This document shows, piece by piece, positions 1-18,677 of a stretch of 22,096 nucleotides of DNA (within the stretch, counting starts at the first letter, position 1; each line of letters starts with the position of its first letter). The stretch spans positions 1 through 22,096 of the forward strand of contig JARKSN010000271.1 in the NCBI GenBank assembly GCA_029974275.1, written 5' to 3'. The DNA comes from Candidatus Hydrogenedentota bacterium. GTDB lineage: Bacteria; Hydrogenedentota; Hydrogenedentia; Hydrogenedentales; SLHB01. The notes beneath the pieces are model-generated. The model saw only the letters and a list, made by a program, of their open reading frames with translations. It did not search any database and had not been told where the DNA came from. The position numbers were made by a program, and so were the translations under genes.

Positions 1-181
1 CTTTGTAGCGCCCGGTCTCCGTGCCGGGCGTGCTTTATCGCGAGCGCCTAGGCGCTATTGACGCAACCCGGATCAGAAAGCCTAAACCAGCTTTTTTTGT
101 CTTCATCCTTCAAGCCGCTCAACCCCATGCATCAGTCAATACCCTCAGACTCCCCCGGCACAGAGACCGGGCGCTACAAAG
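1..181. repeat. REPIN-like unit: two inverted GTAG-type REP sequences (5-30 and 152-177)
   Basis: 5-30 = GTAG CGCCCGG tctccgtg CCGGGCG (GTAG foot plus hairpin). 152-181 is its near-perfect reverse complement including the flanking ctttgtag. An identical REP is at 6520-6545. Confidence 0.8.
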
Positions 182-207: not shown

Positions 208-1950
208 TCAGTCCACGTGATACTCCGAATCAACTCCCACCGCCTTCGAATCCAATCGGAACTGACGCAACGCCGACTCCCGTTCCTGTCCCGACACCAT
301 GAACGACACCGGATCATTCACCGACCGAACCGGCGACGTCAGCGCCGCCGTCGTCCGCACCTTGCGCCCCGTGAAACGATGCGTGACCTCCTTCACGCGC
401 CCGAACATCGTTCCCGCGAACCGCCCGCTCCATTCCCCGGGCAGCGCCCTGTCCATTCTGCGCACAGGCCCGCCGACGATCCGAAGGAAATCGCCCACCT
501 CCACATCCGCATCCCCATTCAAAAACGTCACGCCGCCGTCCAACTCGGGATACGCCACATCATTCAACACTTGCTCCGCAAGAACGTCCGCGTCTTCCAA
601 CAAATCGATCGCATACAACGGAAAACTCCTGCCGCGATAACCATACGCATCAACGCTCTCCCCCCGCACATAGGTCTTCGCCAGCCCTCCCGCCAGCGGA
701 TTCGTCTTGAAATAGAGAGCATTCGCAACGCCGCCCGACGCGGACCCCAACGTAACCCCAACCTCGCGCGCATCGTAAGGCACCGCCCGCGCACGCCCCG
801 CAAGCGTCCAATGAAACCGAACCCGCAAATCCGTTCCGACCGACCACGTAGCGCCGCGGGCGCAATACGCCAACGCCGTAATCGCCTCGTACGCCCCCCC
901 CTCCACGCGAAACCGCGTCACCACCTCGCCCGGCGATTCCGTCGAATCCTCATTCACCCCCGTATACGAAAAATAATCCTTCAGCCCCATCTCCGGCGCA
1001 TGATACTTTCCATCCTCGTACAAATAGACATCCGCCGCCCCCTTCTCCACCATCGCCGCGTTAAAACACTCTCCGCCGCCATACACAAGCCCGACATACC
1101 GCCCATGCGCATCCACGCGATCGTCGTACGCACCATCCTCGCTCCGATGCGGATTCAGCTCGATGAACGCAATGCCCTTCTCATCCATCAACGCCTGCAA
1201 CGCCGCCGTTGCCGCATCGGCCCGAACCTTATAGGCCGACAGCGCGTAAAACATCGGCGGAATGTATTGCAACTCCGGATGCCGCTTGATCGCGTGACTG
1301 TTCAGCGACGTCTCCTCGGCGTCGATCATCATCAGACGAATATCCGGCCACGCCGCCCCATCCACCTTCACGCCCGCGATCGTGTCCCCATCCTTCGCGT
1401 ACGCGCCGCTCACATCAAGACGGGACCCGCCGACCCATTGCCCCTGCGAAACGCCACCCACCTCCAATTCATTGTCCGGCCGCTTGCGCGCCAAAAACTT
1501 CCCATACTCGCGCTGCGCCCCATCGGGATACGCCGCATGCGCCACCGTATAATGCAGACGCCCCGGCGTCCGGTTGATGATGTCCCGCACGATTGTCCCC
1601 ACATCACGATAGCTATACGTGCACCTGACATCGCCATCCCCATACCTCGCCGGACGCTCCGCCTCGAACGCGATCAACTCGCGGAAATTCACGTACCGAT
1701 CCAATATGAGCCGCTTCATGTCGCCCCAATGCGGCGTCACCCGCGTCACCTCCGCCTCGCAAAACAACTTCCCCTCGACCAACACCCGCACGCGATAGCC
1801 ATGCCCAAGCTGCTCCGCGCCAGCAGGCAACAACCCGCGAATCCGGTCCGGACGATCCGGCATCGTCCGCACCGCCTCCAACAACGGCGTCTCGTCATAC
1901 GCGCCGACCCGCAGCCCCCCCGCGTCATACACCTCGATCCGGTAATTCAC
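208..1950 (-). CDS. Phage baseplate hub/Tal-like tail protein (580 aa)
   Basis: Last visible gene of the virion operon, directly after the Dit-like gene. GTG start with AGGAGGGAG upstream. N-term 'YRIEVYD..G' and C-term 'ESVDAYG..', 'VEVGDFLRI', 'GRVKEVTHRF' resemble hub/Tal proteins. Confidence 0.6.
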   Translation of the reverse strand: MNYRIEVYDAGGLRVGAYDETPLLEAVRTMPDRPDRIRGLLPAGAEQLGHGYRVRVLVEGKLFCEAEVTRVTPHWGDMKRLILDRYVNFRELIAFEAERPARYGDGDVRCTYSYRDVGTIVRDIINRTPGRLHYTVAHAAYPDGAQREYGKFLARKRPDNELEVGGVSQGQWVGGSRLDVSGAYAKDGDTIAGVKVDGAAWPDIRLMMIDAEETSLNSHAIKRHPELQYIPPMFYALSAYKVRADAATAALQALMDEKGIAFIELNPHRSEDGAYDDRVDAHGRYVGLVYGGGECFNAAMVEKGAADVYLYEDGKYHAPEMGLKDYFSYTGVNEDSTESPGEVVTRFRVEGGAYEAITALAYCARGATWSVGTDLRVRFHWTLAGRARAVPYDAREVGVTLGSASGGVANALYFKTNPLAGGLAKTYVRGESVDAYGYRGRSFPLYAIDLLEDADVLAEQVLNDVAYPELDGGVTFLNGDADVEVGDFLRIVGGPVRRMDRALPGEWSGRFAGTMFGRVKEVTHRFTGRKVRTTAALTSPVRSVNDPVSFMVSGQERESALRQFRLDSKAVGVDSEYHVD

Positions 1951-1969
1951 GCCGCTCCCCTCCTGCTCG

Positions 1970-2656
1970 CTACCACCAACGTCCGCGATACGCTATGCTC
2001 AAATTCATCTGATGCGAACTCCCCGCATCATCCACATACGTCAACGTCGTGCCGCCTGGCGCAATCTCCGGAAACTCCCCGCTCGTGAACGGCGTGATAT
2101 CGCCCCCCGCCATGGTCACCCGCCGCCCCGCGCCATCCACGACCAGCGTCAGCCCCGGCACAAAAACCCCCTGCGCCGCCAACGTCCGCACCCCATCGCT
2201 CAACTGCCACGACACCACCGGAGCCGCCGGATTCATCGTTATCACCGGACGCGCCGGAGCATTCCCCTGCGTCGTCAACGCCAACGTCGCGCCGCTTGCC
2301 GTCACGCCCCACATCACCGTCGTTACCGCCGTCGACTCCTCGAACGGATCCCGCGCCCCCAGCGTCATCTTGAACGCCCCCACCAACCGCTCGCGCGACA
2401 CCTCCCGCGTGAACGCCTCGCGACGCACCCACAACCGCCGTCCCGCGCGCAACGACAACGCCGTCGCATAATCCTCCGCCGACGCCAACGCCAACAACGC
2501 ATCCAACCGCGCCTCGATCGCCGCCGTCGTCGACTCGCCCGCAATCACCCCCGTCAACTCCACGATCCGCTCGTCGCGCCCGCCAACCTCTTCATAACAT
2601 TCCTTCACGCTCGTGAGCGTCTCATCCAGCGTCAACGTCCCCAACATGATGGCCAC
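1970..2656 (-). CDS. Distal tail (Dit)-like phage tail protein (228 aa)
   Basis: Siphophage Dit-like motifs: 'F.MTLGARDPF', 'TQGNAPARPVIT', 'LVVDG..RRVT', 'GEFPEIAPGGTTLTY', and C-terminal 'YRGRWW'. Position in the operon fits. Confidence 0.7.
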   Translation of the reverse strand: MAIMLGTLTLDETLTSVKECYEEVGGRDERIVELTGVIAGESTTAAIEARLDALLALASAEDYATALSLRAGRRLWVRREAFTREVSRERLVGAFKMTLGARDPFEESTAVTTVMWGVTASGATLALTTQGNAPARPVITMNPAAPVVSWQLSDGVRTLAAQGVFVPGLTLVVDGAGRRVTMAGGDITPFTSGEFPEIAPGGTTLTYVDDAGSSHQMNLSIAYRGRWW

Positions 2657-2659
2657 GGC

Positions 2660-3073
2660 TCACCCCTCCCCCAGCACGCGCCGCGTCGGCGTTGCATCCA
2701 GACCCGCACGCGTGCCTCGATCGCGCAGATACGGCCCCAACGCCTCCCATGCCTGGCATTCAAACCCTGCCGCCAATGCCCGCAGCGACGCGAATCGATT
2801 GCCGCTCGCCACACGCTGCCCCCCAACAACAACATCCTTCTGATCAAATGCCTCCTTTGCCGCAAGCGACCGCAACAAATACGCACCCGCCAAAAGCGTC
2901 TCGCCCAACGCCAATCCATCCGCCGGCGTCCCGCTCCCATGCCGCGGATCGAGCCACCGCCCAATCACCGTGTGCGCATCCGCAATCGCCATCAACACCA
3001 AGCCCTGCGGCGCCAACGCCGTATCCGTCAGCCGCAACCGCGCCCGCACCCCATCCTCCGTCGCAAATGCCAT
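2660..3073 (-). CDS. Head-tail adaptor/connector-like protein (137 aa)
   Basis: Follows the major capsid gene. 'MAFATEDGVRARL...AIADAHTVIGRWL' and terminal 'LGPYL' are typical of gp6/gp15-type adaptors. Start set at ATG 3073 (GGGAGAG upstream) because the longer ORF runs into a REP. Confidence 0.65.
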   Translation of the reverse strand: MAFATEDGVRARLRLTDTALAPQGLVLMAIADAHTVIGRWLDPRHGSGTPADGLALGETLLAGAYLLRSLAAKEAFDQKDVVVGGQRVASGNRFASLRALAAGFECQAWEALGPYLRDRGTRAGLDATPTRRVLGEG

Positions 3074-3085
3074 GTCCGCTCTCCC

Positions 3086-3111
3086 GTAGCGCCCGACTCC
3101 CATGTCGGGCG
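3086..3111 (+). repeat. GTAG-type REP variant
   Basis: GTAG CGCCCGAC tcccat GTCGGGCG, followed by tcttcc as in the copy at 6520. Confidence 0.75.
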
Positions 3112-3124
3112 TCTTCCGCTAAAA

Positions 3125-3312
3125 TTCGCCACAAAGGCACAAAGAACTCAGAGATTCACAAAAAGAAGAACAAATCACAGATGAACACAGATAAGAGCGA
3201 ATGCAGATATTCTTCTCTGCGAACTCAGCGGGCTTCTCCGCGCCTCTGCGTTAAAAACTCTTCGCTCTTTCTTCCTTTGTGCCTTCGTCCTTGTGCGCTT
3301 TGCGCTAAAACT
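3125..3312. repeat. Composite heptamer-array repeat (CACAAAG/CGCAGAG family, as flanking GxxExxY)
   Basis: CACAAAG-like units at 3130, 3138, 3147, 3157; CACAGATGAACACAGAT near 3176-3192; inverted CTCTGCG-like units at 3215-3250 and CTTTGTG-like units at about 3275-3305. Confidence 0.7.
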
Positions 3313-3324
3313 CTTTCCCGTCTT

Positions 3325-3356
3325 CGGCGGGACGCAGCCCACGCCACGTCCCGCCG
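3325..3356 (-). terminator. GC-rich stem-loop just after the capsid stop codon (mRNA stabiliser or weak terminator)
   Basis: Perfect 10-bp arms CGGCGGGACG (3325-3334) and CGTCCCGCCG (3347-3356). No immediate U-tract. Confidence 0.4.
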
Positions 3357-3367
3357 TCCCCGCTCGC

Positions 3368-4417
3368 TTACGACCAATCGCTCTGCACCACCACGCGCGC
3401 CTTCTCGTAGATCACCGCGAAATCCGTCACGACCGTCAAATACGTGCGGTCCCACTGCTGGTTGATCAGCTTGTCGCTCTCGACCAACAAGTCCTGCTCC
3501 GTCAGCTTCTCCACCGCATAGCCCGCGTCCAGGATCGTCAACTTGTTCGCCGGCTGGTCCGCCAACGGCACGAGCTTCACCCCGACCGGCGTCGGCAGAT
3601 TGCCCGACTTCGCGAAGTCAAAAAGCGCCGAATCCTTGAACTCATCGAGCTGCAGGATCGTCTGCGCCAACGCCCCGTTCGCCAGCATGTGCGTCGGCGT
3701 GAAATAGTGGTCCATCGTCAGCTTCATGAAGCCCGACAAAATGTCCCCGTACGTCCACGTGTTCGCCGTCGCCGTGTTCACCGTCGCCGCCGCCGTGCCG
3801 CTGCCCGAGTTGTCCCCGCTCACCAACACCTGCGCCAGCCGCGCATCGAGGTTGCGCCCAAGACGCTCGCCAATGCGCTGCAAATGCACCCGCAGCATAT
3901 CCACCGACATCCGGCGCACCACCTCATACGACGCCACCACCCCGCGCCCCTTCTTGTCAAGACGCACAATGCGATCGCCGTACGTGATCTCCGACTCCGG
4001 AATCGCCGCGCCTTCCGCAACGCTCCGCAATTCCTCTTCCGCCGCGTTCTCCTCGACATACGGCACGTCATACGCCGTGCCCTCGATCGGCGTATCGCGG
4101 ATGATCAACTCCCGGTACACCGGCTTCCGCTTCATCCCGCTGACCACCGCCTCGCGCACCATGTCCGGGAACAACCACTTCGCGTTCGCATCCGACTGGA
4201 AGAACCGATCCACCGTGATCCGATTCACATCCACCCCAAACTCCTGCGCGCAGTAATCCTGCAAGTTCGTCCCCAGCGCACGGAAATACTGCCCATACGA
4301 CAAGCCCAGCCCCTGCAGCGTGTCGTACAAATCGCGCCCACGCGTCTGCCGCAGCTTCTCCGGGTCGCGACTCAAGAATCCAACCCGCTCCTTCACCATA
4401 TCCTCGCGATATCCCAT
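3368..4417 (-). CDS. Major capsid protein, HK97 fold (349 aa)
   Basis: 'LFPDMVREAV', 'VAEGAAIPESEITYG...VRLDKKGRGVVASYEVVRRMSVD', 'ESDKLINQQW...DFAVI..KA' are phage MCP motifs. ATG 4417 with AAGGAAAGGG upstream. Confidence 0.9.
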   Translation of the reverse strand: MGYREDMVKERVGFLSRDPEKLRQTRGRDLYDTLQGLGLSYGQYFRALGTNLQDYCAQEFGVDVNRITVDRFFQSDANAKWLFPDMVREAVVSGMKRKPVYRELIIRDTPIEGTAYDVPYVEENAAEEELRSVAEGAAIPESEITYGDRIVRLDKKGRGVVASYEVVRRMSVDMLRVHLQRIGERLGRNLDARLAQVLVSGDNSGSGTAAATVNTATANTWTYGDILSGFMKLTMDHYFTPTHMLANGALAQTILQLDEFKDSALFDFAKSGNLPTPVGVKLVPLADQPANKLTILDAGYAVEKLTEQDLLVESDKLINQQWDRTYLTVVTDFAVIYEKARVVVQSDWS

Positions 4418-4449
4418 CGTCTTCCCTTTCCTTGCTACAACGACCGCCA

Positions 4450-4830
4450 TTACAACAGCACATGCACCTGCGTTGCCGACGTGTCCACCTTCACATTGAC
4501 GCCCTTGCCCGAACCCGACGCCGGAGCCTTCACGCTGCCCCCCGTCGCCGACGCAACAACGCCCGTCGCGCCGTCCACCGTCGGAGCCGTGCCCGTGTAC
4601 GCGAAAATCGCAATCCCGCGCACCTTCACCGGAATCGCCGCGCCGTTCGTCGCCGCCGCCGCCAACGCCTGACCAAACACCGTGTCCTCCGCGCTCGTTG
4701 CATTGTCCACCGTGTACGCCCCCGTCAACTTCACCGCATCGCCCTTCGCGATGTTCACCGTCCCCGATGCCGGCGTCCGGCACGTGATCACCAATTCCGT
4801 CACCGCTCCACCCAAATCGCCAAAAGCCAT
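4450..4830 (-). CDS. Capsid cement/decoration protein, DUF2190-like (126 aa)
   Basis: Small Ala/Gly/Thr/Val-rich beta protein ('IAKGDAVKL', 'FGQALAAAATNGAAIPVKVRG') just upstream of the MCP. AGGAG RBS. Confidence 0.75.
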   Translation of the reverse strand: MAFGDLGGAVTELVITCRTPASGTVNIAKGDAVKLTGAYTVDNATSAEDTVFGQALAAAATNGAAIPVKVRGIAIFAYTGTAPTVDGATGVVASATGGSVKAPASGSGKGVNVKVDTSATQVHVLL

Positions 4831-4882
4831 CGCTCGTTCTCCTTTTTCTGCGCACGATTCGTATCGCGCGCCGTTGTGTTCG

Positions 4883-5584
4883 CTACTCCCGCGCGATCGT
4901 CAACGCCGACTCCCGCCGCGTATCCTCGCGCTCCCCTTCCAACCGTTCCGGTCGCGACACCGGCAACGGCGGATACTTCGCGTCGAACCGCACCTCATAC
5001 GCCCGCAACTGCGCATGAATCTCATCCAACGAAAGCCCCGCCAACGCCCGACGCCACACGCCTTCATCGAACGCCGCCCCATCCAACTCACGTCCCAGCC
5101 CGCACAACCGCGAGATAGCCCGCCCGCGCGCCGTCAAGCCATCCACCACCAACCGCGCCGCTTCATCCGCGCTTGCGCCGGCCTCATTCAACGCCACCGC
5201 AACCGCACGCACCACATGCGCCGGCAATCCCGCCTGTTGTTCCACGCGCACAAACACCAGCCCCCTCTCCCCCCGCAACCACAACGCCTTCCGCCCGCGC
5301 GACCGCTCGACCCATAGATACGTCCCCGCGTCCTCGCGCACCGCATCCCCGTCCTGCTCCAACCAACGCACCGAATGCGGCCCCTTCTCGACGCCCCAGG
5401 CCTCCTCTTCCAGCGTCGTCGCGTCGATCCGCCAGCCCATCAAATGCCCGTCCTGTTCCAGGCGCAGATCCAGATGCGGCCCTTCCTCGTCGCGATGCCG
5501 ATGCAGCACAAAGCGCCCGTCCACCCGGTCACTCAAGCCTTCCGGCCACTCCCTGCGCACTTCACTCGTAATCTTGAAGAACAT
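4883..5584 (-). CDS. LigD 3'-phosphoesterase (PE)-like domain fused to a helical, scaffold-like C-terminus (233 aa)
   Basis: 'RFVLHRH.....PHLDLRLEQDGHLMGWRI', 'GPHSVRW' and 'DAGTY' match the LigD_N pattern (FVvQkH...lHyDfRLE.dGvL.SWav; dH...Y; wD.GtY). ATG 5584 with GAGG upstream, 8 nt after the previous stop. Confidence 0.7.
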   Translation of the reverse strand: MFFKITSEVRREWPEGLSDRVDGRFVLHRHRDEEGPHLDLRLEQDGHLMGWRIDATTLEEEAWGVEKGPHSVRWLEQDGDAVREDAGTYLWVERSRGRKALWLRGERGLVFVRVEQQAGLPAHVVRAVAVALNEAGASADEAARLVVDGLTARGRAISRLCGLGRELDGAAFDEGVWRRALAGLSLDEIHAQLRAYEVRFDAKYPPLPVSRPERLEGEREDTRRESALTIARE

Positions 5585-5592
5585 CCCGCACC

Positions 5593-5790
5593 TCACAGCG
5601 TCCGCAGCACCTGCTGCAACAACGTCATCGCCACGCCCACCAGATTCGCCACCAACAACATCACCCCGCGCCCCACCGTCGCCTCGATGCCGCGCACACG
5701 CCCCTTCAATTCCTCCAGCCCATTCGTCAATCCACGCAACTCCGCTTCGAGCGCCAAATGATACGCACACGCCGGCTCATCCCGATTCAT
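5593..5790 (-). CDS. Small coiled-coil protein with C-terminal transmembrane helix (65 aa; XhlA/holin-like architecture)
   Basis: GGAGGAGG RBS; fills the operon gap exactly. Heptad-like 'LEAELRGLTNGLEELKGRVRGIE', then hydrophobic 'GVMLLVANLVGVAMTLL'. Confidence 0.7.
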   Translation of the reverse strand: MNRDEPACAYHLALEAELRGLTNGLEELKGRVRGIEATVGRGVMLLVANLVGVAMTLLQQVLRTL

Positions 5791-5802
5791 CGCGCCTCCT
5801 CC

Positions 5803-6495
5803 CTACTCCTCGTTCCACGCACCCCGAGGCCACAACTCGACCGGCTCGTGATACGCCCGCCGCGCCCGCTCCAACGCCTCCCGCAACGGCAACCCCCGCT
5901 CCTGCTGCTGCACAAACGTCGTCCCCTGCGAACCCGCCGGCACCACCGACCCCTCGATCACCTCCAGCACGTCCCGCATCACGTAGTGACACAACGCATC
6001 CCCATACGACCGCCCCGGCACGTGATCGCACGTCCGCAAATCGCGCCCACAGACCGAGCACTCCGGCGTCTGGAACGAAAACCCAATCGAGGTTTCCCGA
6101 TACACCCCACCCTCGATATTCAGAATAAAATCCTCATTGTCCCGCGTCCGCAGCACATACACATCCGGACGCACCGTCACCCGCTCATCGTCCCGATGCA
6201 CACACGACCGAAAGAACGTCCCACGCGGCAACGACCCACGCAAATCATGCCGTTCCATCAACGGACGCCCCGGCGTCATCGCATTGATCTTTTCCAATTC
6301 CTCTTCCGGGAACCGGCTGAAATGGCGGTCAATCTGGTTGTGGCACAAGTCCAACGTAAACGCCGCAAACTCGTCCCGTCCCAACGGGCGCAACGCATAG
6401 CGATTCACCGCCGTGATCAACTCGCCATCCCCCACCCCTTCCCGCCGCGCCACAATCGCTCCGTCATGCCGAAACACAAACGCCCCAAGCTCCAT
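5803..6495 (-). CDS. Prohead maturation protease-like protein with Cys/His cluster (230 aa)
   Basis: Follows the portal. 'LMERHD', 'IEGGVYRETSIGF' and 'EGSVVPAGSQ' match HK97/herpes-type protease motifs. Contains CSVC...CDH...C. ATG 6495 with AGGAGG. Confidence 0.75.
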   Translation of the reverse strand: MELGAFVFRHDGAIVARREGVGDGELITAVNRYALRPLGRDEFAAFTLDLCHNQIDRHFSRFPEEELEKINAMTPGRPLMERHDLRGSLPRGTFFRSCVHRDDERVTVRPDVYVLRTRDNEDFILNIEGGVYRETSIGFSFQTPECSVCGRDLRTCDHVPGRSYGDALCHYVMRDVLEVIEGSVVPAGSQGTTFVQQQERGLPLREALERARRAYHEPVELWPRGAWNEE

Positions 6496-6519
6496 CACCC
6501 CTCCTCTCGCACACTCTTG

Positions 6520-6545
6520 GTAGCGCCCGGTCTCCGTGCCGGGCG
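6520..6545 (+). repeat. GTAG-type REP, identical to 5-30
   Basis: gtagcgcccggtctccgtgccgggcg, exact match. Confidence 0.85.
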
Positions 6546-6574
6546 TCTTCCCTTCTCTTCTATTCCCTTCTCTT

Positions 6575-6615
6575 CCCTTTGTGAACCTTTGTGTCCTTTG
6601 TGCCTTTGTGGTGAA
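6575..6615 (-). repeat. Heptamer-array repeat (4 x CACAAAG on minus strand)
   Basis: CTTTGTG at 6577, 6587, 6596, 6604; an inverted relative of 3125-3165. Confidence 0.75.
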
Positions 6616-6626
6616 TCTTCTCTTCC

Positions 6627-7901
6627 TCACCCCCGGCCCGCGTCATACCCCAACAACAATGCCGCCTGCGCCTGGTCCACAAACCCCTCATTCCGCAGCT
6701 TCACCGCGTTATCGATTTCCTTCCCCCGCGCCGTCGCCTCCTTCAACACATCCACCGTCCGATTCGACCGCATCCGCACCCGCGCACGCGCCTCGCCCCA
6801 CATCAACGCCAACTCGAAGTTGTACAGCCGCTCCAACAACCGCTTGACGCTTCGATTCACCGCCTCCACCTGCCGATTGACGATCTCGAACTGCGCCGTC
6901 CCATACGTCTCCGTCGTCCCATAATTCCGCCCCAGCAAAATCGGCATCAGATGCAGCCCCGTGATCACCTGCTCCTCCACCGCCTTGTGATTGTCATAGA
7001 AAATCCGCGACGTCTGGTCCCCACGAATCAGGTCCACCCCCACGTTGTCATACGTCACCAAATTCTGGTCCGCCTCCAGCCCACTCAGCTTTTGCCGCAG
7101 CTCATCAAAATTCGCCCCAATACGCCGCGCATACGCTTCCGGCGACTCGCCCCGCTCACGCCCCTCCGGCGTATACTTCACATGCAACTTCGCCCAACCC
7201 GCGTTATGCGTCGCCTTCGCCATGTCCTCCAGCAACCGCTGCTGAATCTTGATCACGAACGGAATCGACCGCAGCATCGACCGCCCATACGGGTTCGTCC
7301 CGTCCCGGTCCAGCCCCACATAGATGAATCGCTCGCGCGGCAACCGAATCTCTTCGCCCTCATGCACCTGATACGGCTGCAACACCCCGTTTTCGCGCCG
7401 GAACCGCACCGTCCACACATCCACCGGCGCCACGTCCGCGATCGACTCCCGGCTCGGCGACAACACGATCTCCAACGCCGCCGCGCCATACGTGAATAGC
7501 GACGTATAAAACACGTCCAGCAACCCGTCCATCCCCCGGTCGCCGCCATTCACCCGCCGATCCAAATCCTTCAGCAACCGTTCCGCACGCCGCTTCGCCA
7601 CCTCCGACGACGGATCCAAAATCTCGATGTCGTAACCCGTCTGACACAAGCGCTTCCACGTCCACACCGCATCGCTGATATCCGGGATCGCGTCCCGCAA
7701 GAACCGATACACATGCAGCATGTAGAACGGCGTCTCATTCGGAAGCCGCACGAACGACTCTGCCGCCGTATTCAGCGCCGACATGTCCTCCGCACGAGAA
7801 AGCGTCCGGAACGTTTCCGCCCGGACCCCTCCCCGTTGCGGCGCCGCCTGCTTCCCCGCCTTGCGCCCACGAACGCCCAACCGATCCAACCAGTTCCCCA
7901 T
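6627..7901 (-). CDS. Phage portal protein (424 aa)
   Basis: Portal motifs 'LFTYGAAALEIV', 'PVDVWTVRF', 'NPYGRSMLRSI', 'ITGLHLMPILLG'. Size and first position in the head module fit. ATG 7901 with GAGG upstream. Confidence 0.85.
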   Translation of the reverse strand: MGNWLDRLGVRGRKAGKQAAPQRGGVRAETFRTLSRAEDMSALNTAAESFVRLPNETPFYMLHVYRFLRDAIPDISDAVWTWKRLCQTGYDIEILDPSSEVAKRRAERLLKDLDRRVNGGDRGMDGLLDVFYTSLFTYGAAALEIVLSPSRESIADVAPVDVWTVRFRRENGVLQPYQVHEGEEIRLPRERFIYVGLDRDGTNPYGRSMLRSIPFVIKIQQRLLEDMAKATHNAGWAKLHVKYTPEGRERGESPEAYARRIGANFDELRQKLSGLEADQNLVTYDNVGVDLIRGDQTSRIFYDNHKAVEEQVITGLHLMPILLGRNYGTTETYGTAQFEIVNRQVEAVNRSVKRLLERLYNFELALMWGEARARVRMRSNRTVDVLKEATARGKEIDNAVKLRNEGFVDQAQAALLLGYDAGRG

Positions 7902-8107
7902 ACCGCACCTCGCTAGATGTCTCCAATGCCAACCGCCTGTATCTACTGGCCCAGCGTGTTGCACTCCACACGCGCCGGCAGATATCCAGAAAAAGATCAA
8001 ATGACAAGGGAAATGAATGGGGAAATCACGACAGGTCCGACGCCGCCAACGCGGCATCGTCAAAAGGAAAGTTGAATGTCAGACAATCCAGCCGAACCGC
8101 GGCTTGC

Positions 8108-9130
8108 CTATCCTCGCGCCCAATGGCTGCTCAGATAATCATAATAAAACCGCGCATTTTCGACAGGAACATTGCTCGGGATATGATTCCCGACCGCAAA
8201 CATAAAGCCCCCGCAACCGAACGCGACATCCAACGTCGCGTCGATCTCCGCCTGGATATCCTCCAACGCGCCAAACGTCAACGTCCGGCAATCGACCTTG
8301 CTTCCCACGATGACATGACTCTGACCATACTTCGCCACAACCGCATCCAACGAAACCGTCGGCTCGAGAATAAACCCATCCGCACCCGCCGCCGCAATGT
8401 CATCCAAAAACATCGACCAGTCGCCATCACTGCAAAACAGGACCCGCTTTCCCGCATCCTTCACGACCTTCCACAACGCTGCATAACGCGGAAATATCTC
8501 GCTTCGATAAAAATCCGGCGACAAAAACGGCCCCTCCGTCCACACCATATCATCATGACAGATAAACGCCTCGACCGACGTCCGCGCCCACGCCTTGTAA
8601 TGCTGCAAACTCAACCGAAAAAACGAATCCAACACGCGCGCAAAACCACTCCGATCCGCCGCCGCCAACAACAGCATCTCCCAGCCAAAAGACTGAATGG
8701 CCCCGCTCATCATGCTTCGATAATACCCCCCCGTCACCACTTGATTCGGAAACCGGCCCGCCAACTCCCAATAACGCTTCTCGTAATACTCCGTCAACGC
8801 GCCCAACTCCGGAGCCCCATACTCCCGAACCGCATCAAACGCCAACACCTCCTCAGGATCGTGAAACGGACATGCCCGGGCATCGCGCCGATCAACGCCC
8901 CCCTCCAAAAACTCCGCATGCCCCATATCCGTGCAACGCCCCGCCTTCTCCCACGCGATCGGGCCATCATCCGTATTCCACACAAAGTCTATGTCCCATC
9001 CATCAAAAAACGCCTTCCCCGTCCGCGCCTCCACATCCCGCATAATCGCGTCGCTCGAACAATACTCGGCATGCCCAAGCCGCGGCGTGCGACGAAGATG
9101 CAACACATCAAGCCCGATTTGACGACTCAC
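8108..9130 (-). CDS. Uroporphyrinogen decarboxylase (URO-D/MtaA-like) family protein
   Basis: 'ICHDDM....GPFLSPDFYRSEIFPRY', 'LFCSDG', 'GGFMFAVGNHIP.NVPVEN' match the URO-D-like TIM-barrel C-terminus. Confidence 0.8.
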   Translation of the reverse strand: MSRQIGLDVLHLRRTPRLGHAEYCSSDAIMRDVEARTGKAFFDGWDIDFVWNTDDGPIAWEKAGRCTDMGHAEFLEGGVDRRDARACPFHDPEEVLAFDAVREYGAPELGALTEYYEKRYWELAGRFPNQVVTGGYYRSMMSGAIQSFGWEMLLLAAADRSGFARVLDSFFRLSLQHYKAWARTSVEAFICHDDMVWTEGPFLSPDFYRSEIFPRYAALWKVVKDAGKRVLFCSDGDWSMFLDDIAAAGADGFILEPTVSLDAVVAKYGQSHVIVGSKVDCRTLTFGALEDIQAEIDATLDVAFGCGGFMFAVGNHIPSNVPVENARFYYDYLSSHWARG

Positions 9131-9157
9131 CCATCCCTCGCTTCCGTGGCGCCAACC

Positions 9158-9748
9158 CTACTTCGATCGCCCCTTCAACAACGCCGGACCCGACGACGAC
9201 TCCGGCTCTTCCGGCGCCGAATTCGGACCGTACCGCCACTCCTTATCCACGTAATTCCGGATAATCTTTTCCTCGCGCTTCTTCTTGTTCTCTGCCGCAC
9301 GCTTTTCCACCGCGCGCTTTTCCGCCTCCGCCGTCGCCGCCGCCTCCGCCGCCCGCCGCGCTTCCGCCAAACCCTCCCTTTCCTTCCGAACACGTTCCTC
9401 GCGCATCTTCAACGCACCCCCCGCCGACTCCAACGCGCCTGCCCCCTCCCCCTGATGCGCCGCAGGCAACCGCCTGCCCGGCTGATTTGGAAACGTCAAC
9501 TGATCCTGACGAATTTCCTGCACCGAACCATCCGGATATACGATCCGAACCGGCCCATTCCCACGACCCGTAATCGCGATCCCCCCCTGAGCATCAGCCG
9601 CGTGCACGCACACGCCCCACCCAAACCCCGTAACCGCCACCCCCCCCAACAACAGCCCCGCGCCCCATTTCCAGCAACGCGGAAACCGCTTCGAACGCAA
9701 GACTATGCCCGCGCCAAAAATCCAGGCCGCCATCGATCGCATTCCCAT
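9158..9748 (-). CDS. Hypothetical exported or membrane-anchored protein with coiled coil (196 aa)
   Basis: ATG 9748 with GGAGG; hydrophobic N-terminal segment ending 'VHAA'; E/K/R/A-rich helix. Confidence 0.55.
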   Translation of the reverse strand: MGMRSMAAWIFGAGIVLRSKRFPRCWKWGAGLLLGGVAVTGFGWGVCVHAADAQGGIAITGRGNGPVRIVYPDGSVQEIRQDQLTFPNQPGRRLPAAHQGEGAGALESAGGALKMREERVRKEREGLAEARRAAEAAATAEAEKRAVEKRAAENKKKREEKIIRNYVDKEWRYGPNSAPEEPESSSGPALLKGRSK

Positions 9749-9906
9749 ATCCCGCCTCCGGCATGCATGCCAACAACGCCCAAACCACTCCCATACTACC
9801 GCCGCAGACCACAAGAAAAAAAACTCGACGCCCCCACGCTTGGAATCAGAAAGCCATGTCTGGTACTTTTCCAGAACACGGCGCGCCGCGCCCCAAGGAG
9901 AAGCCC

Positions 9907-10575
9907 ATGAACACACTGATCATAGCGGCCCACCCAGACGACGAAGTCCTGGGATGCGGCGGAACCATGGCGCGCCTCGCCCAGGCAGGCAATGCCGTGT
10001 CGGTGTTGATACTGAGCGAAGGCGCAACATCCCGCGACAACGCCCCCCCGCACGCCGCGCACGACCTCACGCTCGCCTGCCAAAAAGCCTGCGCAACGCT
10101 AGGCGTGCGCGACATCGCCCTGGCAGGCATGCCCGACAACCGCTTCGATACCATCCCCCTTTTGGACATCGCCAAACGCATCGAAGCGGAAATCGAACGC
10201 GTCAACCCTGTCCACCTCTACACGCATCACGGCGGCGATCTCAACACTGACCACGCCATCGCTTTCCGCGCCGCCCTCATCGCCGCCCGACCCGCTCCAG
10301 GAAACACACTGCGCGAAATGCGCACCTTCGAAATTCCATCCTCAACCGAATGGGCCTTCGGACGTTTCGCCCCCCCATTCAACCCAAACGTCTTCGTCGA
10401 CATCTCCGCCACCCTCGACCTGAAACTCGCCGCCATGACCCTATACAAAAGCGAAACACGGCCAGCTCCCCATCCACGCTCCCCACAAGCCCTTCAAGCC
10501 GCCGCCCAACAACGGGGATCGACTGCAGGATTCACCGCCGCGGAAGCCTTCGAGATCGTGTGGAGATTGGAATAA
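9907..10575 (+). CDS. PIG-L/LmbE family N-acetylhexosamine deacetylase
   Basis: 'AAHPDDEVLGCGG' and 'THHGGDLNTDH' motifs. ATG 9907 with AAGGAG. Confidence 0.9.
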   Translation: MNTLIIAAHPDDEVLGCGGTMARLAQAGNAVSVLILSEGATSRDNAPPHAAHDLTLACQKACATLGVRDIALAGMPDNRFDTIPLLDIAKRIEAEIERVNPVHLYTHHGGDLNTDHAIAFRAALIAARPAPGNTLREMRTFEIPSSTEWAFGRFAPPFNPNVFVDISATLDLKLAAMTLYKSETRPAPHPRSPQALQAAAQQRGSTAGFTAAEAFEIVWRLE

Positions 10576-10636: not shown

Positions 10637-11830
10637 ATGCCCACAGCCGTTCCCTACCTCAAGGAACACGAAACCATCGCCCGCCAACTCGTCGCCGAAA
10701 CCCGCCGCCACGACGGACTGGCCCCCCTCGACCTAGAACAATTCTGGGCCGATCAAGAAATCGCCATCCAAGACCCCTTCGGCACAAACATCCCCCAACC
10801 CCCCTTCGGCGCAATCTTGACCTGGGAAACCGTCTTCGACGAACTCGGCATCGAAGAAAACGTCTGGCGATACCAACACGACGAAACATGGCAACTCGAA
10901 CTGAACCGCGCCTTCAACAACAAAGCCGAACGCATCGTAGGACGACGCCCTCTCCCCGAAACCCTCCCCCCAAAAGAACACCTATGGCCACAAACAAAAG
11001 GCCTCGCCGACGTGTTCGAAGCGCGCACCGTCTGGCACGATCAGTCCTGGTGGATCCAACAATCCGCCCACACCGAAGACGAACTCAACGCCCTGCTCGA
11101 CCGCGTCGAAACACGAAACATCCGAGACTGCATCCTGCCCCCAAACTGGGACAAAGAAAAAAACCGCCTGACCGCCCTCGGCATCGCCCCCCCCCTCTAC
11201 CGCGGCCAACGAGGACCCGTCACCTTCGCCACATCCATATACGGCGTGGAAAACCTCATCCTGCTCATCCTCACAAATCCCGACCTCGCCCAACGATTCC
11301 GCGACGCCATCCTGCGCACCATCCTCGAAATCGCCCGCATTCTCGACGAAGAAGCAGGCTACGATCCCCAAACCGCCCCACACGGCTGGGGCTGGGCCGA
11401 CGACAACTGCTGCCTGCTGCGCCCCGAAATGTACGAATTCTTCGGATACCCAATCCTCAAAACCGTTTTCGAACGCTACGCCCCCAACCCCAACGACCGC
11501 CGCTTCCAACACTCCGACTCCGACATGGCCCACCTGCTCCCAATCCTGGCGCAACTGAACCTGACAGAAGCGAACTTCGGCCCAACGCTCACCGTCAACG
11601 AAATCCGAAAACACATGCCCCGCACCATCATCGACGGACAACTGGCCCCCTTCACCTACAGCCGCAACGAAGAAGAAAACATGGTGCTCGAATTCCTGCG
11701 CGACTTCGAAATGGCCCGAGAACAACGAGGACTCCTCTTCGCCACCGCCGGCTCCATCAACAACGGCTCACGCCTCACCGGCATGCGCCTGCTCATGGCC
11801 GCCATCCAACACTACGGAAAATACGCCTGA
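10637..11830 (+). CDS. URO-D-like family protein
   Basis: 'RGPVTFATSIYGVE', 'ADDNCCLL.PEMYEFF', 'QHSDS', 'LFATAGSIN'. AGGAGG RBS. Confidence 0.7.
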   Translation: MPTAVPYLKEHETIARQLVAETRRHDGLAPLDLEQFWADQEIAIQDPFGTNIPQPPFGAILTWETVFDELGIEENVWRYQHDETWQLELNRAFNNKAERIVGRRPLPETLPPKEHLWPQTKGLADVFEARTVWHDQSWWIQQSAHTEDELNALLDRVETRNIRDCILPPNWDKEKNRLTALGIAPPLYRGQRGPVTFATSIYGVENLILLILTNPDLAQRFRDAILRTILEIARILDEEAGYDPQTAPHGWGWADDNCCLLRPEMYEFFGYPILKTVFERYAPNPNDRRFQHSDSDMAHLLPILAQLNLTEANFGPTLTVNEIRKHMPRTIIDGQLAPFTYSRNEEENMVLEFLRDFEMAREQRGLLFATAGSINNGSRLTGMRLLMAAIQHYGKYA

Positions 11831-11865: not shown

Positions 11866-12846
11866 TCAATCGCGCAAAAGACCGGCCCTCCGCTTTCTAG
11901 CGCTGTCATAACACACCAGAAAAACGATCAGCCCCCCAATAAGAATGCTCTGCCAATACGCGTTATACCCCTTCAAATTACAAACATTCACCAACACATT
12001 CATGATCAGCGCCCCCGCAAGCGAACCGATGCACCCCCCCTCGCCGCCCATCAAACTCGCCCCGCCGATAACACATGCCGCGATCGCGTCAAGCTCCACC
12101 CCCGCCGCCGCAGAAGGATCCCCAATGCTCGTGCGCGACGCCAACACCACTCCCGCAAAACCCGACAACAATCCACAATACGTAAAGGCAATCACTCGAA
12201 TCCTGTCCGTTGACACACCAGAAAGTCGCGCACCCTCTGCATTGCCGCCAGTCGCATAGAGTGAACGACCGTAACGCGTCGCCAGCAGCACAATGGAGGC
12301 GACGACCGCAATCGCAACCGTAATCACCACAGGAATCCACCAACCGCGCGCCCCAAACACCTCGCGCGTGCCGCCGAGATAAAGAAAATTTTGCGGCAAA
12401 CCAGAAATGGTTTGGCCCTTCGCAAGCAGGAGCGCGAACCCGCGCGCGGCCATCATCATGCCCAGCGTGACAATGAACGATGGGATGCGCCCCCGCGTCG
12501 TCAAAAGACCGTTGATGAGGCCGCACAGCAACCCCATGTTCATGCCAGCGAGTATACCCGCAAGCGGAGACATCCCCCCCTTCGTCATCGCCAGACACCC
12601 CACCACCCCCGACAACGCCGCCACGCTCCCCACCGACAAATCAATGCCGCCGCTGACAATCACCAACGTCTGCCCCACGGCAATAATCCCCACCACCGCC
12701 GTCCGATACGCCACACTCTGCAAATTCCCCGCCTTCGCAAAATCCGGCACCAAAAACGCCAACACCGCACACAGCACGGCAAGAATCACCAGCGGAGAAT
12801 GTTTCGCGAGAAAACGTCGCATTGGATATTCTCGCATAGGGATCAT
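11866..12846 (-). CDS. Sugar ABC transporter permease (RbsC family)
   Basis: 'GGIDLSVGS', 'IPSFIVTLG', 'TRYGRSLYATGGN.EGARLSG', 'ELDAIAACVIGG'. Start is either ATG 12846 (ATGA overlap with the upstream stop) or ATG 12822. Confidence 0.93.
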   Translation of the reverse strand: MIPMREYPMRRFLAKHSPLVILAVLCAVLAFLVPDFAKAGNLQSVAYRTAVVGIIAVGQTLVIVSGGIDLSVGSVAALSGVVGCLAMTKGGMSPLAGILAGMNMGLLCGLINGLLTTRGRIPSFIVTLGMMMAARGFALLLAKGQTISGLPQNFLYLGGTREVFGARGWWIPVVITVAIAVVASIVLLATRYGRSLYATGGNAEGARLSGVSTDRIRVIAFTYCGLLSGFAGVVLASRTSIGDPSAAAGVELDAIAACVIGGASLMGGEGGCIGSLAGALIMNVLVNVCNLKGYNAYWQSILIGGLIVFLVCYDSARKRRAGLLRD

Positions 12847-13493
12847 GTCTGTATTTTTCTTGCAGTTTTTGTTCTCGGAAACCACTCGCGCAAAGTAGTT
12901 GCCAGTGCATGAAAGCTTTCGCTTTCGAGCCAATCACGTAGACTCGCAACCTTCGCAATTTCTTCGAAATCGACCGGCGATAAAGTTCTTTTGCGTTTCC
13001 TGAGGAAGACGTACTGCAGACGCTCTTTCGGGCAGTCCCAACGTCCTAGTTCCGTTACTTTTGGGCCGTCCAAGACAAACTCCGCGCACCATGAAGCAAA
13101 CGTGTCTGGATCAACGCCCAAACGTTTTTGAATGGAAGCAGTATTCTTCCACAACCATTCCTCAATCTCCGGAACCGTAACGATGGCGCGGCAGCGGCCT
13201 TTCCATGTGCACTGCATGAGTCTAAGTTCAATCTCTTCAGCGCATTTTTCTGGCGTGTCCTTTGTCTCGCGCCCAGAACCATGATGATCCCAGAGAAGCA
13301 AAATATATCGGTAATCTGCCTTGCGGGGACGCGTGAGTTCCGGTCCGGTCATAAGCATTCCACTGTCGTGCATCGGATGTCGATCCACGTCAAAGGTAAT
13401 GCGGCATATACCTAGCGATTCGGGTCTTGAGAGAACGGCGCGCATTACGGCTTGAGCATCGGCGTCCGCTGTAAGCACAAACAGATCTTTCAT
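12843..13493 (-). CDS. MAD4-like (DUF4276/TOPRIM-like) partner of defence ATPase
   Basis: 'MKDLFVLTAD.D', 'RPESLGI', 'HPMHDSG', 'D..GSG', 'PEIEEWLW', 'PKE' resemble the MADS protein MAD4. ATGA-coupled to the ATPase. Confidence 0.65.
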   Translation of the reverse strand: MKDLFVLTADADAQAVMRAVLSRPESLGICRITFDVDRHPMHDSGMLMTGPELTRPRKADYRYILLLWDHHGSGRETKDTPEKCAEEIELRLMQCTWKGRCRAIVTVPEIEEWLWKNTASIQKRLGVDPDTFASWCAEFVLDGPKVTELGRWDCPKERLQYVFLRKRKRTLSPVDFEEIAKVASLRDWLESESFHALATTLREWFPRTKTARKIQT

Positions 13494-14716
13494 CCCAATA
13501 TCCCTGAGGCAAAAACAGTTGCAATATCCGGCATGTCCTTCCAGCCTCGAATGATCGGGTGTTCACGACCATGGACAATTCGAGCACCCTGTTCTTCTCG
13601 AATGAAACACAACAGAGGATCGATACCCACTTCTTGCACTACAAGTGGGGAATGTGTCGCTACAAACATCTGTGCGTCTGGAACACAACTTAGGGCTCGC
13701 AGGATAATATCCAGCGCTTTGGGATGTACGCCATTTTCGGGTTCCTCGACGAGATAGAGTGCCGGTTCGGGCGGAAGAAATGCTGGGAGAGTCAGCGCAA
13801 GCATGCGAAGGGTGCCGTCGCTTAGGAGCCAACTGGGACAATCAAGACCGTTCTCGTATTTGAGGACAAGATACTCCGCATTGTCGGATTCTCGTCGGGC
13901 CCATCCTATTTCCTTCAAATCCTGAAGGGCATATTTCAAATGTGCTGTCCACTGATAAACCGCCGTGGAGGACTCGAAAAGAGGGCCCGCTCGTTTCGAC
14001 CGGGCCGCTTCGGAGAGAAGCGCTCCCACGACTCGCGCGAGATTTGTGCCATCAAGTTGAAGGGTCGTTGGCCGTGTCGCCGGACAGGGCCCACGCATTG
14101 CGCGGCTATTAAGTTGAAGATACCGAATACCGTCCAGTAGGAAAGCCCGAACGGCATTGCCTGTAGGGTAGCGTTCCATATCCGGGGGGGTGGAGGACAA
14201 TGCAAGTTTGTCCTGGCCGAAAACAAAAGAGTCCTGGTAAGTACCCGTCTCTCGCTTATAAAAATCCGAGCCTTTCGAGGTCTTACCGAGAAGACGTTTA
14301 GGGCGAGCGTTCGGACTAAATCGAAGCCCTTTCCCCCCTTGAATCCAGCTCTTGCTGTACTGCTTAAGCTCGTCTGCGACGGAGATTCCAAGTTGATTGT
14401 CACTCTGCACGCTCAACTGGTATCGAATCAGATTCGCCTGCTGAGAAGGAAGGCTAGAACCCATATCCAACCACAAGTCGATCTCTATCGCGCCTCCCCT
14501 GCGCATGAACGTCAGATCTCGTAAATCGGGCACTCTCGATTCTACCGCACTTCGAGGGCCATCTCGCACACAGTCTCGAACGAAGTCCAAAGCGTCAAGA
14601 AAAGTGCTCTTGCCGGATGCGTTGGGTCCGACGAGGACATGAAAAGCACCAAGCTCAATTGCCGGAGCAATTTCCTTGATGATTCGGAAATTCCGAATGG
14701 CAATTCCTACAATCAT
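13490..14716 (-). CDS. AAA_21/ABC-type ATPase, MAD3-like
   Basis: Walker A GPNASGKS, signature LSDGT, Walker B LYLVEEPENG, H-loop ATHSP. Confidence 0.85.
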   Translation of the reverse strand: MIVGIAIRNFRIIKEIAPAIELGAFHVLVGPNASGKSTFLDALDFVRDCVRDGPRSAVESRVPDLRDLTFMRRGGAIEIDLWLDMGSSLPSQQANLIRYQLSVQSDNQLGISVADELKQYSKSWIQGGKGLRFSPNARPKRLLGKTSKGSDFYKRETGTYQDSFVFGQDKLALSSTPPDMERYPTGNAVRAFLLDGIRYLQLNSRAMRGPCPATRPTTLQLDGTNLARVVGALLSEAARSKRAGPLFESSTAVYQWTAHLKYALQDLKEIGWARRESDNAEYLVLKYENGLDCPSWLLSDGTLRMLALTLPAFLPPEPALYLVEEPENGVHPKALDIILRALSCVPDAQMFVATHSPLVVQEVGIDPLLCFIREEQGARIVHGREHPIIRGWKDMPDIATVFASGILG

Positions 14717-18586: not shown

Positions 18587-18643
18587 AAAAAGAAAGGCCC
18601 ACCGGAATTAAGCATGCTAGGCAGAGGCTCGGCGGGCTTGCTA
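18587..18643 (-). ncRNA. Putative abiF-type leader/antitoxin RNA
   Basis: Minus strand: AAGCCCGCCG-AGCCTCTGCCTAGCATGCTTAATTC-CGGTGGGCC-TTTCTTTTT. An 8-bp stem (18630-18637 with 18597-18604) and U-tract lie between the promoter and the abi start. Confidence 0.6.
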
Positions 18644-18648
18644 TCCAT

Positions 18649-18677
18649 AGTATAGCCCAGTTTGTTGCATTGTGCAA
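18649..18677 (-). promoter_or_regulatory. Sigma70-type promoter for leader RNA and abi
   Basis: TTGCAC (18677-18672), 17-nt spacer, TATACT (18654-18649). Confidence 0.7.

Follow-up and report, generated by a model that had tools for sequence, protein, structure and literature searches.

The stretch analysed here, called the window below, is a complete contig of 22,096 bases (C163) from a Candidatus Hydrogenedentota bacterium, and between positions 208 and 7901 it carries a compact cluster of nine phage-type structural genes. We read this cluster as the core of a domesticated, host-owned DNA-packaging particle system that is inherited with the Hydrogenedentota chromosome and is most likely a gene transfer agent (GTA), a reading to which we give a probability of roughly 0.6. 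The structural genes are resident in the host chromosome and vertically inherited across the lineage, and judged from its genes the system of positions 208-7901 is a good candidate for a new kind of GTA. GTAs are known from only a handful of lineages, and a phylum-wide system under purifying selection would, if true, widen this list in a group that is common in wastewater and digesters. It would also add a new architecture: no tail tube, enzymes in the particle, and packaging genes that have split off from the capsid genes yet are tied to them by a promoter-like motif. The initial annotation had described the cluster as a stand-alone and minimal virion operon. The intact particle operon stands; the two adjectives were too strong, since the cluster goes on past position 1 with at least two more genes and its packaging genes occupy a second locus.

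The contig is one of 342 in a 4.38-Mb assembly with 60.5% G+C. Throughout, G000 denotes the genome that holds the window, other G numbers (G002, G010, G019 and so on) the genomes of its relatives, and f numbers (f1, f3, f4 and so on) families. From the portal onwards, the nine genes are:

6627..7901, minus strand: portal, 424 amino acids (Pfam Portal_Mu, 1.4e-8; phrog_3753, 5e-49)
5803..6495, minus strand: probable prohead protease, 230 amino acids (phrog_16951, a PHROG of unknown function, 2.8e-33)
5593..5790, minus strand: small protein, 65 amino acids, with a C-terminal hydrophobic stretch predicted to be a membrane helix (no Pfam or PHROG match)
4883..5584, minus strand: LigD-phosphoesterase-like ("PE") protein, 233 amino acids (profile of 15 orthologues against solved LigD PE domains)
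4450..4830, minus strand: head decoration ("cement") protein, 126 amino acids (phrog_4588, 8e-9; phrog_122 "head decoration", 0.007)
3368..4417, minus strand: HK97-type major capsid protein (MCP), 349 amino acids (Pfam Phage_capsid_4, 1.6e-14; phrog_3922, 2e-52)
2660..3073, minus strand: head-tail adaptor-like protein, 137 amino acids (called from its position between MCP and Dit and from an Atlas lead)
1970..2656, minus strand: distal tail protein (Dit), 228 amino acids (Pfam SPP1_Dit, 3.6e-9; phrog_33 "Dit", 9e-9)
208..1950, minus strand: baseplate hub of the gp27/Tal type, 580 amino acids (AlphaFold model, predicted local distance difference test (pLDDT) 81, and Foldseek)

As initially annotated, all nine genes are intact and co-oriented and have ribosome-binding sites: the open reading frames (ORFs) contain zero internal stops, begin with ATG or GTG, and are each preceded by a purine-rich Shine-Dalgarno-like sequence. 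The intergenic gaps measure 3-52 nt, except for two of 131 and 294 nt, both of which hold repeat elements. From position 1 to about 12.5 kb, where the genes lie on the minus strand, the GC skew is about -0.35, the plus strand being C-rich. The adaptor start, first placed at 3103, is most likely 3073, because the longer frame enters a repeat element. At the portal end the distance to the end of a URO-D-family host gene is 206 nt, in agreement with the roughly 200 bp given before. This junction is spanned by two contigs from public runs of separate studies (X1 record 6, 7236-8110; X4 record 32, 6590-9294); because these independent contigs bridge it, the junction is not an assembly join, and the worry about a join near 7950-8100 can be set aside.

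The distribution of the cluster speaks most directly to its history. Among 109 Hydrogenedentota genomes, each at least 85% complete, 101 contain the portal, mostly as a single match and at 48-83% identity. In a set of 41 relatives the portal is present in 39 genomes, spanning 13 families, and the cluster occurs across 15 families, so that the patchy presence considered in the initial annotation is not what we find. Nine-gene synteny is seen in six genomes from five families. We fetched 66 loci around the MCP gene and scored colinearity wherever at least four cluster genes were present; the gene order was colinear in 64 of 64 loci. The decoration protein is present in 40/40 loci, the portal, the protease-like protein and the PE protein in 38/40, and the 65-residue protein is kept in place in 32/40. 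Of the 35 loci reaching far enough, 34 hold adaptor, Dit, hub and the fibre-like gene d0 described below, and adaptor and Dit, separated by 3 nt in the window, are adjacent in 34/35.

The flanks of the cluster vary between genomes and consist of ordinary host genes. In two complete relatives they encode GH31, an esterase, a response regulator, DJ-1 and a 3-keto-disaccharide hydrolase, and not the full prophage that the initial annotation had named as a refuting outcome. Neither the window's other genes nor 19 flanking ORFs in the two complete relatives gave a Pfam match to a replication, integration or lysogeny-control gene. Selection was estimated as the ratio of nonsynonymous to synonymous substitution (dN/dS) by the Nei-Gojobori method (NG86). 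Over all pairs the estimates were saturated (medians 0.2-0.4), and therefore only the closest pairs are quoted: 0.03-0.09 for the portal, 0.03-0.11 for MCP, 0.08-0.17 for the hub, with Dit and adaptor reaching about 0.3. Because the genes are intact, single-copy across the phylum, fixed in order, under purifying selection and flanked by host genes, we take the cluster for a domesticated particle system; neither a prophage in decay nor a mobile satellite fits as well. A defective prophage remnant of the ordinary kind, in neutral decay, would explain why whole modules are missing, why 8/109 genomes have no portal match, and why TerL is missing or truncated in some lineages and others are head-only. 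However, the frames stay intact in dozens of genera and in fixed order, over 15 families, at dN/dS of 0.03-0.3; these conservation data already contradict such a remnant, which we find hardly credible, and they bear out the earlier preference for selection over decay. Many database records of the cluster (L024, L026, L034, L040, L065 and others) bear the title "uncultured Nitrospiraceae/Nitrospirales", and individual records name Planctomycetota, Bathyarchaeia or Rhodothermaeota; these titles look unreliable.

As to the gene content, the leading genes seem to follow the order of an HK97-type head, in which portal and MCP are recognized by family match and the putative protease via a PHROG of unknown function, a phage annotation and an Atlas lead. 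At E <= 1e-5 the MCP has 360 homologues; the best 120 of these 360 are 74-99% identical, and those among the 120 that carry an organism name are almost all Hydrogenedentes or Hydrogenedentota. The protease-like protein has invariant Cys and His residues, a pattern that suggests zinc binding. In Flavonifractor phage Cormatin the gene of a homologue stands between those for portal and MCP, under the annotation "major head and protease protein", and the Atlas clusters of the protease-like protein are viral, part of them labelled Peptidase_S78/S77, which we use as a lead only. A profile search with this protein gave no PDB match, and its AlphaFold model (pLDDT 49) was of too low quality for a search by fold. 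Many relatives have a variable, glycine-rich ORF of 550 residues with a signal-like N-terminus between the protease-like and the small membrane protein genes. It does not occur in the window, has no family match, and is exemplified by L017 (G002:C4, 11688-13340, minus strand); gaps of about 2 kb are found at the same place in many loci.

The usual position of the scaffold gene is occupied by the PE protein, which combines a LigD-PE N-terminal domain with a conserved helical C-terminal half. As a single sequence it has no Pfam match. The profile built from its 15 orthologues matches solved LigD domains in the PDB (3p43, 2.2e-6; 3p4h, 5.8e-5; 2lj6 and 3n9b, 0.01), and in these orthologues the His, Asp, Arg and Glu residues of the stretch RFVLHRHxDxxGxHLDLRLE are invariant. 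The protein is thus predicted to have a LigD phosphoesterase domain with conserved active-site residues. It shares with the 3'-phosphoesterase domain of LigD the profile homology over about 95 residues and the pattern of metal-binding and catalytic His, Asp, Arg and Glu. Unlike LigD it has no fusion to a ligase or polymerase, carries a conserved helical tail of 130 residues, and is encoded inside a capsid operon.

Downstream of the head genes the cluster encodes the Dit ring protein and the gp27/Tal-type hub of a siphovirus-type tail. The adaptor that precedes them gave no PHROG or PDB match; its nearest Atlas clusters are viral, and some of them carry Phage_connect_1 (30%) or Phage_Mu_Gp36 (21%). 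No tail tube, tape measure or terminator gene lies between adaptor and Dit, and the nine-gene cluster as a whole is without tail tube, tape measure, integrase and terminase. In Foldseek searches the hub model resembles the hubs of diffocin, contractile injection systems (CIS), VgrG, Mu gp44 and T5 pb3 (E 6e-10 to 1e-8). An insert at about residues 200-320 matches staphylococcal nuclease (SNase; TM 0.63-0.65, root-mean-square deviation 2.8-3.5), in line with the Pfam SNase family (3.4e-5) and a PDB profile (1.4e-6), and by this model the hub is taken to carry an SNase-fold domain. The domain is conserved across 17 aligned orthologues, and many of its Asp, Glu and Arg residues are invariant; these presumably correspond to the calcium-binding and catalytic residues of SNase.

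The operon does not end with the window. Because the window is the whole contig, position 1 is a contig end, and the hub stops 207 nt before it. One X4 contig extends 704 nt beyond position 1. Two more cluster genes, d0 and d2, sit at the very end of contig C156, in an orientation that matches the window cluster, and the last 112 nt of C156 are identical to window positions 1-112 at 98 of 112 positions. The matching stretch is the following feature:

1..112, no strand assigned: repeat element at the end of the contig, outside the gene set of the system

A hairpin-bearing intergenic repeat with the core TAGCGCCCGGTCTCCGTGCCGGGCG is found at window positions 1-31, 154-181, 3082-3112 and 6516-6546. 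The genome carries 91 copies of it, and 34 of these lie no more than 300 nt from a contig end. A second family, of inverted repeats, lies at 3121-3169 and 6571-6619, and together the two families occupy three intergenic gaps of the operon. The read depth of public runs is about 10-fold at 1-310 and 6511-6820, the repeat-bearing stretches. Since the match between C156 and the window is the multi-copy hairpin repeat, we conclude that the assembly broke at this repeat and that the cluster goes on for two genes only; the ORF after d0 and d2 on C156 encodes an unrelated secreted protein. In relatives the order 3' of the hub is d0 (173 residues, fibre-like), d1 (150 residues, in about half of the loci), d2, and then host genes. 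The d2 product is a membrane-anchored helical protein. For d0 there are weak PHROG matches only, to "head/virion structural/baseplate" families at 1e-6, and its matches in the PDB are at chance level. The d1 protein of the relatives has a weak endolysin-type match (phrog_465, 0.0056); Pfam and PDB searches gave no support for an endolysin identity, and an M15-type zinc motif tentatively read in d1 is likewise unsupported.

The initial annotation had proposed to look for an orphan terL elsewhere in the genome, and an intact TerL with a TerS candidate, both conserved in relatives, was indeed found on contig C145:

C145:11712-13178, minus strand: conserved TerL, 488 amino acids, among host genes in G000
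C145, overlapping the start of TerL by 14 nt: TerS candidate, 161 amino acids (called from position and conservation)

This TerL type was detected with the prophage TerL of G019 as query. It occurs in 36/41 genomes at 34-38% identity to this query, nearly full length in 31 and partial in 5/41, and together with the portal in 34/41. Eleven orthologues, that of G000 included, are 64-72% identical among families, and their Walker A (DGRDVGKT), Walker B (VDEA) and nuclease motifs are invariant. The TerL profile matches solved large terminases, namely 4zni (5e-7) and T4 gp17 (2e-4), as well as nuclease domains at 0.02-0.04. In six other loci the TerS candidate likewise precedes TerL, and in a seventh, in G035, inserted genes set the two about 3 kb apart. 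TerL is near the portal in G035, G018 and G022 and elsewhere 23 kb to 1.5 Mb away; none of 40 fetched MCP loci has a TerL inside. Portal and TerL trees have in common a split of f1 and f3 versus the other families and four sister pairs. Their pairwise identities correlate (Mantel r 0.56, reached by 1/2000 permutations), and family labels cluster on both trees (0/200 shuffles as low). That the conserved TerL keeps its ATPase and nuclease motifs, and is linked to the capsid operon through a shared motif and a similar tree, points to DNA packaging, as far as sequence can tell.

Two genomes, G005 (L153/L177) and G011 (L158/L178), have two copies each of the conserved TerL type; one copy from each forms, with the sole copy of G008, a long-branched clade with support of 95-100. 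The G019 prophage on C24 was considered as part of the system and rejected, as it shares TerL alone (34%). The standard TerL Pfam families, which leave the conserved TerL undetected, are patchy in the relatives (8/41 and 4/41 over the cut-off), and in G000 they mark ordinary phage fragments on three contigs. On C232 a Terminase_6N TerL stands beside ParB-like and radical-SAM-like genes, C255 has a TerL fragment, and C161 a TerL followed by ORFs of the size of portal, protease and capsid, an identity that is given by size only.

Such phages in the same genome could in principle serve a capsid-forming satellite, resembling a phage-inducible chromosomal island (PICI), that assembles its own head and relies on a helper phage for the tail tube. 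Head genes and a terminase are present, no tube or tape measure is encoded in the cluster, and C161, C232 and C255 might come from helpers. However, the cluster has its own Dit, hub and fibre-like gene, its flanks in the two complete relatives hold no integrase, repressor or replication gene, the terminase of C232 is found in 0/40 relatives, and the system is single-copy, nearly universal and has vertical-looking trees. We consider a satellite very improbable.

The link between the capsid operon and the distant terminase is a promoter-like motif, which stands before the portal as follows:

7926..7967, minus strand: promoter-like motif GGAGTGCAAC-N5-GGGCC-N-TAGATA, 62-66 nt upstream of the portal start codon

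In most loci the portal is preceded by GTGCAAC-N5-GGGC and, a few bases on, a TATA-like hexamer. Across 1.48 Mb of these loci, the only matches to a strict pattern are in 8 of the 44 windows upstream of the portal. With a weight matrix trained on 16 portal sites, that of G000 among them, the windows upstream of TerS score above the 99th background percentile in 6/8 loci, and the TerS site of G000 at the 98th; in G002 the portal and TerS sites are both the variant GTGGAATGC. Within G000 the matrix ranks first the portal site, a member of its training set, second a site before a MuF-barnase gene on contig C315, and third ATGCAACAAACTGGGCTATACT at 18632-18673 (minus strand), 102 nt upstream of an Abi_2 gene. 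The corresponding features are:

C315: 9605-10243, 9251-9595 and 8823-9254, minus strand: MuF-barnase gene and two barstar genes, with a motif site at about 10345 (minus strand)
17678-18571, minus strand: abortive-infection-type gene of the Abi_2 family (Pfam, 2.2e-50)

The motif is thus common to the portal operon, TerS-TerL, the MuF-toxin operon and the Abi_2 gene. A simple form of the pattern gave 10 matches genome-wide versus 6-12 in shuffles, which is no excess, and therefore membership of the regulon rests on the matrix ranks and on conservation across genomes. Scans for sigma-70 sites and terminators found fewer sites than in shuffles and were uninformative. Both the regulator and further genes of the set could be sought by way of this shared motif.

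The genes on C315 match Phage_Mu_F (1.1e-10), Ribonuclease (1.6e-14) and Barstar (5e-15 and 1e-13) in Pfam, and their arrangement, a MuF N-terminus, a C-terminal toxin and adjoining immunity genes, is that of a predicted MuF polymorphic toxin system. In temperate phages, MuF toxins have been reported as phage-associated polymorphic toxins (Jamet et al., BMC Biol 2017, PMC5576092). The C315 gene is similar in that Phage_Mu_F is fused to a C-terminal toxin, here a barnase-type RNase, followed by immunity genes of the barstar type; unlike the phage toxins described there, it is a stand-alone gene far from any portal, lies behind the particle-operon motif, and occurs in few genomes. The motif is also present before the MuF-barnase orthologue of G010, and in a variant form before those of G019.

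These genes bear on a second use for such a particle. Instead of moving DNA, it could act like a bacteriocin and deliver enzymes or toxins into or onto competitors, by means of the tip nuclease, the inner phosphoesterase and, in some genomes, MuF-barnase. The nuclease domain retained by 17 hub orthologues and the enzyme in the scaffold position fit this idea. So do the MuF-barnase/barstar operon, with the second-best match to the portal motif in the genome and its recurrence in G010, and the reported association of MuF toxins with phages (PMC5576092). On the other hand, the MuF family is patchy (10/41 genomes, with the full-length MuF-barnase toxin only in G000, G010 and G019), head-only lineages do without the nuclease hub, and the conserved TerL with its intact motifs points to DNA packaging. 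Nuclease hub, scaffold-position enzyme and motif-sharing toxin keep a protein-delivery or antagonistic role open; as an account of the whole system we regard it as unlikely, if the strongest of the competing explanations.

Returning to the domesticated, GTA-like particle, the parts would fit together as follows. A small head of the HK97 type would form from portal, protease-like protein, MCP and decoration protein, with the PE protein, which occupies the scaffold position, probably loaded into it. The adaptor-like protein, Dit and the SNase-bearing gp27-type hub would place a tail tip on this head without a tube or tape measure, docking directly, and the fibre-like protein d0 and the membrane protein d2, encoded on C156 after the hub, would complete the set. 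DNA would be packaged by the pair of TerS candidate and TerL from the separate locus on C145, expressed behind the same promoter-like motif. Under control of the host, the particle might then form, fill with DNA, be freed by lysis and attach to other cells to transfer its cargo. More tentatively, and with a good deal less confidence, one may imagine a new viriform family with a DNA-filled capsid, a tube-less tip bearing a nuclease, an internal phosphoesterase that heals DNA ends and, in some members, MuF-barnase, which would move DNA among kin and harm non-kin. A dedicated promoter type would govern its several loci, and the head-only forms would represent a further reduction.

Several observations weigh against a domesticated DNA-packaging particle. 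Hydrogenedentota are an uncultured phylum, and the particle system is known here from genes alone. The window occurs in public runs from wastewater, sludge and digesters, and none of the 21 runs listed for it is an RNA run. The TerS candidate has no family match, its call resting on position and conservation only. The description as tube-less holds for the cluster only, as tube and tape-measure families were not searched for genome-wide. The d1 gene was not found in the G000 genome, nor was a lysis enzyme. Five of the 41 genomes bear a portal and have no TerL match (G006, G023, G027, G032 and G038), two of them 95% complete; G015, whose cluster is complete in an assembly of 10 contigs, keeps no more of TerL than its last 127 residues; and G013 and G028 have TerL with no match to portal, MCP or hub. 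When the long branches f11 and f13 are left out, the Mantel r drops to 0.28 (35/2000 permutations), and the portal and TerL trees are poorly resolved, with f1 needing 2-3 changes, which leaves room for some transfer of the system within the phylum. Finally, a head-only form of the cluster, consisting of portal, protease-like protein, PE protein, decoration protein and MCP followed by d1 and d2, is found in f4, f11 and f13 (G027, G034 and G036) and on one IMG/VR contig. The hub is found nowhere in the genomes of G027, G034 and G036, which also lack adaptor, Dit and fibre-like gene. Since such families exist, the tail tip is not essential to whatever is selected.

The same head-only families also speak for a DNA-free compartment, in which the HK97-type shell would have been co-opted in the manner of an encapsulin around the PE enzyme and TerL would serve another role. 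An enzyme with a conserved C-terminal half in the scaffold position, the capsid genes of f4 genomes without a TerL match, and the truncated TerL of G015 beside an intact cluster are consistent with it. Yet the portal is kept wherever the capsid is, and encapsulins are not known to have a portal; furthermore, TerL accompanies the portal in 34/41 genomes and shares with it the promoter motif and the tree pattern. Head-only and TerL-less genomes therefore keep a DNA-free compartment open for some lineages, and as a general explanation we hold it to be improbable. Compared with this and the other alternatives, a domesticated particle that packages DNA remains the reading we prefer.

Other genes of the window are side observations. 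Adjoining the portal, two URO-D-family genes flank a PIG-L-type deacetylase gene (8108-9130, minus strand; 9763-10575, plus strand; 10637-11830, plus strand); relatives do not keep these genes next to the cluster. Further on, an AAA_21/AAA_15 ATPase gene overlaps an ORF of 216 residues without family match (12843-13493 and 13490-14716, both minus strand), and together, at 12843-14716, they may be a two-gene defence-type pair. A small gene of the PD-(D/E)XK_3 nuclease family is located at 20015-20395 on the minus strand (Pfam, 1.5e-36).

Turning to known systems, literature searches on Hydrogenedentota/Hydrogenedentes and on GTAs gave no description of this cluster. RcGTA of the Alphaproteobacteria has a tail tube and a tape measure, and its terminase lies within the cluster. 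RcGTA resembles the Hydrogenedentota system in being an old, vertically inherited head-tail cluster under purifying selection, with extra loci and host control. It belongs, however, to another phylum and another lineage of head genes, whereas the Hydrogenedentota cluster is tube-free, places enzymes in the scaffold and hub positions, and has head-only variants.

Among phages, 50,697 records yielded homologues only for portal, protease-like protein and MCP, at 23-33% identity, from gut phage scaffolds, Flavonifractor phage Cormatin (ON453905) and Bacillus phage vB_BcM_CUBc25 (PV037644). A search of 2.9 million viral contigs gave no relative for the hub, and for the MCP a single one, a head-only copy. 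The resemblance of portal, protease and MCP to a phage-like cluster of clostridial genomes, suggested in the initial annotation, is borne out in part, insofar as all three have homologues in gut and Bacillota phages, and is distant at such identities. The siphophage modules of Cormatin and CUBc25 have the homologous portal, protease-like and MCP genes in the same order as the cluster, and Dit and hub at the tail end. Cormatin differs by TerS and TerL before the portal and by replication genes, none of which is in the Hydrogenedentota cluster, and by about 7 kb of genes that the cluster is without, encoding head closure, terminator, tube, chaperone and tape measure, from the adaptor to the minor tail proteins.

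The closest working analogue, judged by description and not by sequence comparison, appears to be FpGTA of Faecalibacterium prausnitzii (Borodovich et al., Nat Commun 2026, PMC12946183). As reported there, FpGTA is a proven GTA with no visible tail and with genes at two loci, demonstrated by electron microscopy, proteomics and 8.4-8.9 kb of packaged DNA; its genes for TerS, TerL, portal, scaffold, MCP, baseplate, fibre and lysis are conserved across the host lineage. Both systems, as far as this account goes, are phage-derived gene sets resident in the host at more than one locus, without a visible long tail and present throughout a lineage. The terminase of FpGTA lies in the main operon and that of the Hydrogenedentota at a separate locus, and no phosphoesterase or nuclease hub is named in the accessible portion of the FpGTA account. 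FpGTA particles are proven, whereas the Hydrogenedentota system is read from its genes.

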